Part shown: positions 37,036 through 39,965 of the stretch, piece by piece | Layout: the number at the start of each line of letters is the position of its first letter | Position numbering within the stretch: position 1 is the first letter of the stretch | Source: an uncultured Solirubrobacterales bacterium | GTDB lineage: Bacteria; Actinomycetota; Thermoleophilia; Solirubrobacterales; Solirubrobacteraceae | NCBI GenBank assembly: GCA_963815565.1 | Contig: CAWFHB010000003.1 | Coordinates: 470,329 to 534,328 of the forward strand | Direction: 5' to 3' | DNA: 64,000 nt | Program-made: the position numbers and the translations under genes | Notes under the pieces: generated by a model | Databases searched by the model: none | Told to the model about the DNA's origin: nothing | What the model saw: only the letters and a program-made list of their open reading frames with translations

Positions 37036-38191
37036 TCAGCGCTCGTCGAGCCGAGCGACCGCGGCGACGAGGCGGTCGACCTCGTCGAGGCTCGTGTAGT
37101 GCGCGGCCCCGGCGCGAACGGCACCCTCAGCGCTTAGGCCGAGGAGGTCAGCGAGCCCGAGCGCGTAGAAGGAGCCGGCGCCCACGGCGATCTGCTCGTC
37201 GGCGAGCCGCTCGGCCACCGCGGCCGGCGTATGCCCCTCCACCGTGAAGAAGGCGGTCGGCGTCCGCCGGGCGGGAGCGCCGAGGAGGCGGACGCCGGGC
37301 AGCGCCCCGAGGCCGCCGACGAGCGCCGCGGTGAGCGCGTCCTCGTGCTGCGTGATCGCCGGCCACCACGTCGCGGCCAGGTAGTCGGCCGCCGCGCCCG
37401 CCGCGGCGAGGAGCTCGAAGGGCTGGGTGCCCTGGTCGAAGCGGTCCGCGCCCACGTCCGAGGACGCACGCAGCTTGTCGACGGCCAGCTCCGCGAGCAG
37501 CCCGGGCGCGCCGCACAGCACGCCGAGGTGCGGGCCGAACCATTTGTAGGCCGAGCAGACCGCGAGGTCGCAGCCGAGCGCGGCGAGGTCGAGCTCGATG
37601 TGCGGCGCAGCGTGCACGGCGTCGAGGAAGACCCGGGCACCGACGCCGTGTGCGAGCTCGGTGATCGCGCGTACGTCGGTGATCGCACCGGCGACGTTGC
37701 TGGCCGCGGGGAACGCGACCCAGCGGGTGCGATCGCAGAGCTCGGCTGCGACCGCCTCGGGGTGGAGCTCGAGCGTGACGGGATCGGGGTCGACGACGCG
37801 GAGCGTCGCGCCGGAACGCTCGGCGGCGAGCTCCCACGGGCGGACGTTCGCGTCGTGGTCCAGGCGGGTGACCACGAGCTGGTCGCCCGGGCCGAGCGTG
37901 CGCTCGATCGCCCCTGCGACGCGGAAGGTGAGCGCGGTCATCGACGGACCGAAGACGACGCCCTCCGGGTCGGCGCCGAGCAGCGTGGCTACGGACGCCC
38001 GCGCCGTCGTCGGTGACCTCACGGGTCCGGCGGGAGGCCGGGAACGAGCCGCCGTAGTTCGCGAACGCACCGCTGCTCAGGTAGTCGGTCGTCGCGGCGA
38101 TGGCGGCGTCGACGGGCTGGGTGCCGCCAGGGGCGTCGAAGCGGGCCCAGCCGTCGGCCAGGCCGGGGAAGCGTTCACGGTTGAGGCCCAT
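37036..38191 (-). CDS. Cysteine-desulfurase-like PLP enzyme (class V aminotransferase), one frameshift near 38005
   Basis: RERFPGLADGWARFDAPGGTQ...ANYGG in ORF 37148-38248, continuing as LVVTRLDHDANVRPW, AASNVAG, LDAVH, CSAYKWFGPH in ORF 37036-38070. Confidence 0.88.
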
Positions 38192-38766
38192 GCGGGGATG
38201 GTCCCAGAACGCGAGAACCCCGCACGGGGGCGGGGTTCTCGACGACAAGTGGCGGGTCCAGGATTCGAACCTGGGAACTCAGAGAGGCAGCGTTTACAGC
38301 GCTGTGCGTTTGACCGCTTCGCTAACCCGCCGGGGCGCGTGAGGGTAGCGAAACCGCGCGCCAGCGCGGCGTCGAGCGGCGGCCCGGCCTCGACCTCGAA
38401 CTCGGCGTACTTCGAGCCGCCGACGCAGATGGCGGTGGTGGCCTGGATGTGGCGCGATGCGATCCGCCACCGTCGCCCGTCGACGGTGACCACGAACAGC
38501 ACATCGCATCGTGCCGGAGAGAAATGCTTGACGATCTTGTTCCACGACTGGTTGCCCCCGCGTGTGCAGACGGACACGATCCAGTTGCCGTGCCGCGAGC
38601 GTTGCCCGCTGGACTTGACCTGAACCGTGACCGGCCCGCTTCCGTCGTCGGCAATGAAGTCGTAGTCCGGGCTTCGCCCGAGCGGCACGAAGACGCAGGC
38701 GCCGCGCTGTTCGTACCACGCCCGCGCCGAGGCCTCGCCCAAGTCCCCTTGCTGCTGACGGTTCAT
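38077..38766 (-). CDS. PD-(D/E)XK endonuclease of the group-I-intron-associated (PDDEXK_5-like) family; ORF reads through tRNA-Tyr
   Basis: QQQGDLGEA...FVPLGRSPDYDFIAD...VQVKS...TRGGNQSW...CDVLFVVT; nuclease-like part ends near 38390 and the rest translates the tRNA and terminator. Confidence 0.85.
   Translation of the reverse strand: MNRQQQGDLGEASARAWYEQRGACVFVPLGRSPDYDFIADDGSGPVTVQVKSSGQRSRHGNWIVSVCTRGGNQSWNKIVKHFSPARCDVLFVVTVDGRRWRIASRHIQATTAICVGGSKYAEFEVEAGPPLDAALARGFATLTRPGGLAKRSNAQRCKRCLSEFPGSNPGPATCRREPRPRAGFSRSGTIPAWASTVNASPAWPTAGPASTPLAAPSPSTPPSPRRPTT
38212..38241 (-). terminator. Terminator hairpin downstream of tRNA-Tyr
   Basis: Perfect 12-bp stem CGAGAACCCCGC / GCGGGGTTCTCG with 6-nt loop. 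Confidence 0.75.
38250..38331 (-). tRNA. tRNA-Tyr(GTA)
   Basis: GGCGGGT/ACCCGCC acceptor stem with A discriminator, CAGCG-CTGTAAA-CGCTG anticodon arm, long variable arm, GGTTCGAATCC T-arm; uninterrupted. Confidence 0.97.
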
Positions 38767-38770
38767 GGAA

Positions 38771-38784
38771 CGAACATACGTTCG
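38771..38784. promoter_or_regulatory. LexA (SOS) box overlapping the leaderless -10 of the endonuclease
   Basis: CGAAC-ATAC-GTTCG, matching the Gram-positive/actinobacterial GAAC-N4-GTTC consensus; on the - strand TATGTT (38778-38773) lies 6 nt before ATG 38766. Confidence 0.8.
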
Positions 38785-38808
38785 CCGCCGGACGGATCCG
38801 GCGGCGAA
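38781..38808 (-). terminator. Hairpin terminator after the sigma factor gene
   Basis: Perfect 12-bp stem TTCGCCGCCGGA / TCCGGCGGCGAA with CGGA loop. Confidence 0.7.
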
Positions 38809-38819
38809 GCAGGCCCGCG

Positions 38820-39965
38820 TCAGCTGGCGTCGCGCAGCCGCTGCGCCTCGGGCAGCGACTCGAGCTTCTTCAGCGTGTGGTTCTCGATCTGGCGGATGCG
38901 CTCGCGCGTCACGTTGAAGGCACGGCCGACCTCCTCCAGGGTGCGGGGTCGCTGGCCGGTGAGGCCGAAGCGCATCTCGATGACCTCACGCTCCCGCTGC
39001 GGCAGCGCCGCCAGCGCACGGTGCACGTTCTCCTTGCGCAGGTTGTCGGAGGCCATGTCGAACGGGGAGACCGCGTTCTCGTCCTCGACGAAGTCGCCGA
39101 GCTCGGACTCCTCCTCCTCGCCGATCGGCTTCTCGAGCGAGATCGGCTGCTGGCTCATCCGGAGGATGTCGCGCACCTCCTTCTCGGTCACGTCGAGCTC
39201 GAGCGCGATCTCCGCCGGGCAGGGCTCGCGGCCGAGCGACTGCACGAGCTGGCGCTCGACGTGCACGACCTTGTTGAGCTTCTCGACCATGTGGACCGGG
39301 ATGCGGATCGTGCGGCCCTTGTCGGCGATGGCGCGCGTGACGGCCTGGCGGATCCACCAGGTCGCGTAGGTGGAGAACTTGTAGCCGCGGCGGTAGTCGA
39401 ACTTCTCGACCGCGCGGATGAGCCCGAGCGAGCCCTCCTGGATCAGGTCGAGGAAGGTCAGCCCGCGGCCGAGGTAGCCCTTGGCGATCGAGACGACAAG
39501 GCGCAGGTTGGCCTCGACCATCTGCTGCTTGGCGTCCATGTCGCCGCGCTCGATCCGCTTCGCGAGCGAGACCTCCTGCTGGGCGGTGAGCAGCGAGACG
39601 CGTCCGATGGAGCGCAGGTACAGCCGCAGCGAGTCGAGCGACGGCTCGACGGTGAGATCGATGGAGGCCTTCTTCGGCCCGTCCTCGGTCGGCTGCCGGC
39701 GGGCGCGCGCCGCGTTCTCGACCTTCTCCGACTCGCTCGTGGCGAGCTTGCCGGTCGCCCCGACGACGTCGATGCCGTGCTCGACGAGGTAGGCGTGCAG
39801 CTCGGTGATCTGCTCCTTGCTGACCTCCACCTCCTCGAGCGCGGCGGAGATCTGCTCGAAGGTGAGGACGCCCTTGTCCTGCCCCTCCGCGATCAGCGAT
39901 TTGAGCTCGTCCATCTCGACGATGGGTGCCTCATCCGCCAACAGCACTTCCGCTTTCGTGCTCAT
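38820..39965 (-). CDS. RpoD/SigA-type sigma-70 factor with region 1.1
   Basis: [16 protein letters not shown] (1.1), [11 protein letters not shown] (1.2), [14 protein letters not shown]...[26 protein letters not shown] (2.4), [21 protein letters not shown] (4.2). Confidence 0.95.

Follow-up and report, generated by a model that had tools for sequence, protein, structure and literature searches.

A compact promoter combining a LexA operator with a PafBC-type element, probably DNA-damage responsive, precedes a leaderless nuclease gene in an uncultured Solirubrobacterales bacterium

The LexA operators described in actinobacteria and Firmicutes, such as the Cheo box and the mycobacterial TCGAAC-N4-GTTCGA, have the core CGAAC-N4-GTTCG, overlap promoters, and serve a regulon comprising lexA, recA, dnaE2-imuB, dinB, radA, and HNH-type nucleases. 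The 13E12 family of Mycobacterium tuberculosis is an example of such HNH-type nucleases. A second control of the DNA-damage response is exerted by PafBC, whose promoters (RecA-NDp) lack a -35 element and are served through a mechanism named 'sigma adaptation' (Mueller et al., 2021, PMC8635444). The mycobacterial PafBC consensus is tGTCgg(N10)tA(N3)T, in which PafB reads a GTC triplet described as conserved across actinobacteria (PMC8635444); in M. smegmatis the reading residues are the arginines R46 and R50 of the helix-turn-helix (HTH) domain. Mycobacterial genes carrying an SOS box together with a PafBC motif are known (PMC8223512). Here we describe a promoter where both motifs interlock, found in a 64,000-nucleotide stretch of DNA (hereafter the window; assembly GCA_963815565.1, contig CAWFHB010000003.1, positions 470,329 to 534,328) from an uncultured Solirubrobacterales bacterium of the class Thermoleophilia (genome G000, 3.49 Mb, 72% GC; C-numbers below denote its contigs). 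Positions 38764-38808 of the window are probably a compact dual LexA/PafBC DNA-damage promoter, serving a leaderless gene for an I-Ssp6803I-like nuclease that is read on the minus strand between a sigma-70 gene and a tRNA-Tyr gene. Dual control of this kind is known in actinobacteria, and the locus most likely extends it to a class and a target gene that are both new.

The operator core is that of the described systems. At 38771-38784 the DNA reads CGAAC-ATAC-GTTCG (plus strand, CGAACATACGTTCG), with no mismatch to the palindromic consensus, and exact copies of CGAAC-N4-GTTCG number 18 in the 3.49 Mb genome against about 3 expected from base composition (our own calculation). A weight matrix for this genome separates 14 sites, scoring at least 21.7 bits, from the next one at 16.8 bits; rebuilt without the nuclease site, the matrix gives the nuclease box 22.6 bits (rank 12), while the best site outside the set reaches 16.3 bits, well below the roughly 14 sites with at least 21.6 bits. 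Box copies with A/T-rich spacers directly precede lexA, dnaE2, an imuB-like gene, dinB, radA, and a radical-SAM repair-type gene, and they stand in the same position at a pair of HNH-like genes and at some small genes; the recA box is weaker than those of the other SOS genes. The regulator itself is encoded as a canonical LexA of 230 amino acids, which would be autoregulated by way of its own box and in which an Ala-Gly cleavage site (AAG) and the serine (GESM) and lysine (VKR) of a Ser/Lys dyad can be read. Compared with the known operators, the flanks here favour aCGAAC...GTTCGc over T...A. On these sequence criteria, the box at 38771-38784 is a LexA operator of this organism's regulon type. 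The original prediction had placed the box at these positions, over the hexamer TATGTT, 6 nt from the nuclease ATG and with one arm in a hairpin, and all of its coordinates are correct; the chance it had allowed for, that LexA of this organism uses another motif, is countered by lexA, dnaE2, dinB, and radA, which share the motif.

Read on the minus strand, the box (CGAAC-GTAT-GTTCG) spans positions -6 to +7 counted from the start of the -10 hexamer and thus takes in the entire -10 together with the 6 nt of spacer that adjoin it and 2 nt past it. The hexamer, TATGTT (38773-38778, minus strand), is of the TAnnnT type; its bases come from the spacer of the box and from the start of the right half-site. 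After a gap of 6 nt it is followed by the nuclease ATG (38764-38766, minus strand), which from this geometry is also the predicted transcription start; TATGTT-N6/7-ATG is found in orthologs as well. No Shine-Dalgarno sequence lies upstream of the ATG, and no sigma-70 -35/-10 pair was detected in 37900-39400. Among 1233 confident genes, TAnnnT stands 6 nt before candidate starts in 142 cases and 7 nt before in 138 (280 in total), against about 5 elsewhere, a peak indicating that leaderless transcription is common in this genome and that TATGTT-N6-ATG is a standard arrangement. Because a regulon-type box sits on a leaderless -10, damage-inducible expression of the nuclease is a sound inference. 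The original prediction went further and had the gene expressed only on DNA damage; it overlooked a second element, upstream of the box, through which activation is probable besides derepression.

This element is CCGTCCG at 38789-38795 (minus strand; GTC = 38793-38791), of the type of the PafBC '-26 element'. It falls within the hairpin, in the loop and the 3' arm, lies exactly 10 nt upstream of the -10, and places its GTC 12 nt before the hexamer, so that the local motif, cGTCCG(N10)TAnnnT, stands in the same register as the published one. Genome-wide, CCGTCCG and TAnnnT are combined 15 times at the 10-nt gap against about 1.3 at other gaps, and most LexA-boxed promoters have (T/A)TCCGTCCG upstream. 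In this genome the motif stands at recA, as it does in 23 of 30 genomes from the order, and it is also found at radA, nucleases, lexA, and dnaE2. A fused PafBC is encoded at C6:216837-219008 (minus strand; 696-723 amino acids), with two WYL domains, two WCX domains, and HTH_PafC; it matches the Arthrobacter PafBC structure PDB 6SJ9 (E = 3.7e-25) and PafB in 7P5X (E = 1.9e-22). The locus thus shares with the mycobacterial PafBC promoters the GTC 12 nt before TAnnnT, the lack of a -35, the occurrence at recA, and the presence of a PafBC gene, whereas the consensus here is ttCCGTCCG and the regulator is a natural fusion. The possibility that CCGTCCG belongs to promoters of the lineage in general was ruled out, as GTC in that register occurs in 26 of 658 leaderless-type promoters (about 4%), with no upstream consensus among them.

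The two motifs are combined in an ordered way. Among the 15 LexA-boxed promoters, 11 contain CGTC-N12-nAnnnT, and the box takes one of three fixed registers relative to this PafBC-type promoter, a feature that sets the genome apart from the known LexA operators. In register A the box covers -6 to +7 of the -10, as at the nuclease gene, both HNH-like genes, and radA. In register B the left half-site GAACAT is itself the -10 and a GTG start comes right after GTTC, the operator covering the -10 through +1; this holds for dnaE2, the radical-SAM gene, and a gene for a 184-amino-acid protein (C4:131339, C7:804903, C4:36509), and for the orthologous nuclease loci L004, L012, and L019. In register C, seen at lexA, recA, and a gene for a 118-amino-acid protein, the box is immediately downstream of the -10.

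Some of the other boxed sites deserve a remark of their own. Besides the nuclease gene, four small genes behind a LexA box have a nuclease-like or selfish appearance (C3:378941, C7:666404, C4:36509, C5:239758): they comprise the two HNH-like genes (258 and 200 amino acids), the 184-amino-acid protein, which has no Pfam match and contains a LAGLIDADG-like stretch, 'LRGLIAADG', and a gene for an HTH protein that is transcribed divergently from tRNA-Lys(TTT). At C7:1260735 and C8:5287 the sequence around CGAAC-GGGG-GTTCG is identical; these are probably a repeat or an assembly duplicate rather than an operator.

Relatives of the nuclease gene allowed the promoter to be followed across species. 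They comprise 35 loci with 44-56% identity, from metagenome-assembled genomes of Solirubrobacterales and Thermoleophilaceae, and promoters were compared at 37 loci. The original prediction had proposed a scan of the recA, lexA, and homologous nuclease promoters; besides the boxed lexA and the weaker recA box, it yields a box with at most one mismatch in about 13 of the 37 nuclease loci, and one further locus, L033, has a perfect GAAC-N4-GTTC core. The chance rate of such a box is about 0.005 per locus (our own calculation). In 12-13 of the 37 the -26 element occurs together with the -10 and a start codon 5-8 nt away, and 9-11 loci hold all elements, as ttcCGTCCG-N4-CGAACG-TATGTT-N6/7-ATG or its register-B variant. 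The nuclease proteins are only about 50% identical, a divergence at which unselected intergenic sequence would be randomised, and the partial conservation of the promoter can therefore be regarded as a phylogenetic footprint. In a Thermoleophilaceae subgroup (L005, L006, L015, L016, L018, L021, L026, and L029-L031), a small divergent gene lies between the sigma and nuclease genes, and its start overlaps the nuclease promoter or the -26 element, resulting in back-to-back leaderless starts.

The gene under this promoter encodes a PD-(D/E)XK nuclease domain (38341-38766, minus strand; 142 amino acids), assigned to Pfam PDDEXK_5 with 37.9 bits against a cut-off of 26.1 over the first 92 residues of the frame. 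The sole sequence match in the PDB is I-Ssp6803I (2OST; E = 0.017), the PD-(D/E)XK homing endonuclease that is encoded by the group I intron in tRNA-fMet of Synechocystis. An AlphaFold model (predicted local distance difference test, pLDDT, 83; predicted template modelling score, pTM, 0.80) also has 2OST as its best fold match (template modelling score, TM, 0.66; E = 2.5e-6), followed by NhoI and archaeal Hjc resolvases. Across 21 orthologs, whose proteins were taken from tblastn frames, 32 residues are invariant, including D36 and Q49-V50-K51, and all 32 are present here. No informative NCBIfam family was found for the protein. By sequence and modelled fold, the product is an I-Ssp6803I-like PD-(D/E)XK enzyme, with which it shares PDDEXK_5, the D...QVK motif, a length of about 140-150 amino acids, and a link to a tRNA; its function is a prediction. 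It differs from I-Ssp6803I in being free-standing, in its position, which is ahead of tRNA-Tyr and not within a tRNA gene, and in having a damage-response type of promoter. The core fold is related to that of the archaeal Hjc resolvases (Foldseek probability about 1.0, TM about 0.5-0.6), more weakly than to that of I-Ssp6803I, and no membership of the Hjc family is apparent at the sequence level. By analogy, a junction-resolving role would fit SOS/PafBC control.

Taken as a dual promoter, the element would work as follows. In the undamaged cell, LexA bound over the -10 would block RNA polymerase, and the promoter, having no -35, would be weak unless activated. Upon DNA damage, RecA on single-stranded DNA would drive the self-cleavage of LexA, and PafBC, activated by single-stranded DNA, would then recruit the housekeeping holoenzyme via the -26 element by sigma adaptation. 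The predicted product is an mRNA starting with AUG. In transcripts reading through from the sigma gene, the nuclease AUG would be internal and devoid of a Shine-Dalgarno sequence, and should be translated poorly. On this account the SOS/PafBC regulon would include the nuclease as a dispensable member, kept between rpoD and the genome's single tRNA-Tyr gene. The hairpin, part of which is -26 element sequence, probably serves here to end the transcript of the sigma gene or to stabilise it.

Several findings weigh against this account, those on the promoter being given here and those on the gene and the hairpin below. In the fused PafBC, the equivalent of M. smegmatis PafB R46 is kept, but that of R50 is alanine (from the alignment, with inferred numbering). 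CCGTCCG-N10-TAnnnT also precedes leaderless pyrG, gmk, pyrF, acpP, and an OB/HD-domain gene (C7:649840, C7:758126, C7:314136, C7:1172859, and C6:220992), and the -26-like element is found before some membrane protein genes too, so its regulon is not purely one of DNA repair, a point of difference from the described PafBC promoters: genes of nucleotide metabolism may belong to the regulon, or another factor may recognise the element. Over half of the nuclease orthologs lack the box, the -26 element, or both, and the control is therefore not essential to the gene; since many orthologs have neither, it appears to have been gained or lost repeatedly. As an observation apart, the change of R50 to alanine accompanies the shift of the local consensus from tGTCgg to ttCCGTCCG.

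The first two of these findings would suit control by LexA only, as in the original prediction, acting on an ordinary constitutive leaderless promoter, with CCGTCCG either a mere hairpin arm or the site of a factor other than PafBC, whether another WYL regulator, a lineage-specific sigma contact, or some further factor. The LexA evidence stands by itself, and a third WYL protein is indeed encoded, at C7:1138339. A LexA-only promoter would leave unexplained, however, why the register is that of the published PafBC motif, why the motif is kept at recA across the order and recurs in orthologous nuclease promoters that have no hairpin, and why no -35 is detectable. We consider it unlikely, and the dual LexA/PafBC promoter remains the preferred reading.

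At the level of the gene, the open frame has 229 codons (38077-38766): with no stop codon ahead of tRNA-Tyr, it continues across the tRNA as far as 38077. The protein deviates from the ortholog consensus at several otherwise conserved positions (RIAS here for FIPS, GGSKY here for GGPKY), and the GC content at third codon positions (GC3) is 0.79 against at least 0.9 in typical genes. The local copy may accordingly be decaying. Pressed further, and joined with the repeated loss of the gene in relatives, these features would describe a relic drifting to loss, with no present role and with an operator that persists for lack of time. Such a relic would hardly be expected to retain faultless promoter parts (a box with no mismatches, the -26 element, the -10, and an ATG at 6 nt) or a frame open across the domain with 32 of 32 invariant residues, and the missing stop before the tRNA is shared by eight other loci. 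We therefore hold a relic to be very unlikely, and a nuclease gene under dual control is favoured over it.

The distribution of the nuclease bears on another possibility, that of a free-standing homing endonuclease, active or recently so, which would cut nuclease-free rpoD/tRNA-Tyr junctions while recombination is induced; the original prediction had likewise seen in SOS timing an advantage for homing. The closest enzyme by sequence and fold is a homing endonuclease targeting a tRNA gene, the position lies between two highly conserved genes, and the occurrence is patchy: only 17 of 201 genomes of the class have the nuclease, presence and absence are mixed within single genera, and some copies are broken. 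Nuclease and sigma distances are also uncorrelated (Mantel r = 0.08, p = 0.23), in a test that had little power, with L003 an outlier, L005 dropped, and sigma distances small and saturated; the closest pairs do agree between the two genes. The locus, on the other hand, is fixed, with tRNA-Tyr(GTA) within about 50 nt downstream in 35 of 35 related loci and the sigma gene upstream in 33 of 35, and the nuclease is single-copy in this genome. No group I intron or other known RNA was found at the locus, where Rfam detects only the tRNA, and the first 13 bases of tRNA-Tyr are identical between some genomes that have the nuclease and some that lack it.

Three short sites free of the nuclease were examined. 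In G101 and G005 the last 40-70 nt of the gene are kept together with the tRNA promoter, whereas no gene remnant was seen in G125. Since the 3' end of the nuclease is retained, the sites of G101 and G005 arose by deletion, which rules them out as uninvaded empty sites and hence as evidence of homing. With a fixed locus, a single copy, and two of three nuclease-free sites explained by deletion, the proposed advantage for homing finds no support, and an active or recent homing endonuclease is likewise judged unlikely. From the sequences compared, we take the nuclease gene to be old and dispensable, with a fixed locus; it may have homed in the past, but homing at present finds no support. A literature search for LexA-controlled homing endonucleases returned nothing directly comparable.

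Downstream of the nuclease lies tRNA-Tyr(GTA) (38249-38331, minus strand; ARAGORN, and Rfam RF00005 with 60.4 bits), the sole tRNA-Tyr gene of the genome. Its own promoter has the -10 hexamer TACCCT (38342-38347, minus strand), which falls within the 3' end of the nuclease frame and stands 10 nt ahead of the mature 5' end. Read by eye, a TAnnnT hexamer (TACAAT, TAGACT, TATCCT, and the like) occurs there in nearly all 36 loci, about 10-14 nt from the mature 5' end and inside or just past the nuclease frame, and it is kept in nuclease-free sites. The claim that SOS induction would co-transcribe tRNA-Tyr is thus plausible in part: SOS transcripts would probably enter the tRNA, because no stop signal lies between, but the tRNA has its own conserved -10 and is therefore independent of such read-through. 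The distance from the nuclease stop to the tRNA ranges from 3 to 41 nt across the 36 loci, except for 9, this locus among them, where the frame enters the tRNA. Here, cutting of an SOS transcript by RNase P would leave a nuclease mRNA without a stop codon.

Upstream, the 3' part of the sigma-70 gene (38820-39950, minus strand; 5' limit approximate) is of the housekeeping type (rpoD/hrdB-like), with Pfam Sigma70 regions 1.1, 1.2, 2, 3, and 4. Its stop codon TGA is at 38822-38820, and 11 nt further on begins a perfect 12-bp GC-rich hairpin with the loop UCCG (38781-38808, minus strand), a candidate terminator or 3'-end stabiliser. In minus-strand order the hairpin reads TTCGCCGCCGGA-TCCG-TCCGGCGGCGAA (38808-38781) and is followed by CG-TATGTT-CGTTCC-ATG; its 3' arm overlaps the LexA box by 4 nt, TTCG/CGAA (38781-38784). 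The fold energy is -39.7 kcal/mol (z = -3.0), and perfect stems of at least 12 bp occur at 14 of 1130 gene ends against 0 of 1130 windows inside genes of this genome. The findings on the opposing side are that the stem is followed by CGUAUGUUCGUUCC and not by a U-tract, that a scan of 37900-39400 for canonical L-shaped terminators was empty, and that no comparable stem lies between the sigma stop and the -26 element in orthologous loci, where this element follows the sigma stop within about 10-25 nt. As the U-tract is missing and the stem is absent from orthologous loci, the label of upstream terminator, originally given to the hairpin, is plausible but unproven; judging from sequence, the hairpin may plausibly terminate the transcript of the sigma gene or make it more stable, a role that would be specific to this genome. 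Genome-wide, long perfect hairpins without a U-tract are restricted to the 3' ends of genes.

A bolder view of the locus is possible, if on the doubtful side: an I-Ssp6803I-type endonuclease may have been captured by, or may exploit, the LexA and PafBC circuits within one 45-bp leaderless promoter, either as a homing element timed to the SOS response or as a domesticated Hjc-like resolvase, in a class where nearly the whole LexA regulon would be nested, in three registers, in PafBC-type promoters. Short of this, the analysis offers a sequence-level view of the DNA-damage regulon of Thermoleophilia, a deep class of actinobacteria most of which is uncultured. Its LexA motif conforms to the usual actinobacterial pattern, the mycobacterial PafBC '-26 element' would extend to this class with the consensus ttCCGTCCG, and leaderless promoters appear to unite the two controls in fixed registers. 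The two would act on a conserved yet dispensable nuclease, encoded next to an essential tRNA gene, which is a candidate for a domesticated or fading homing endonuclease.

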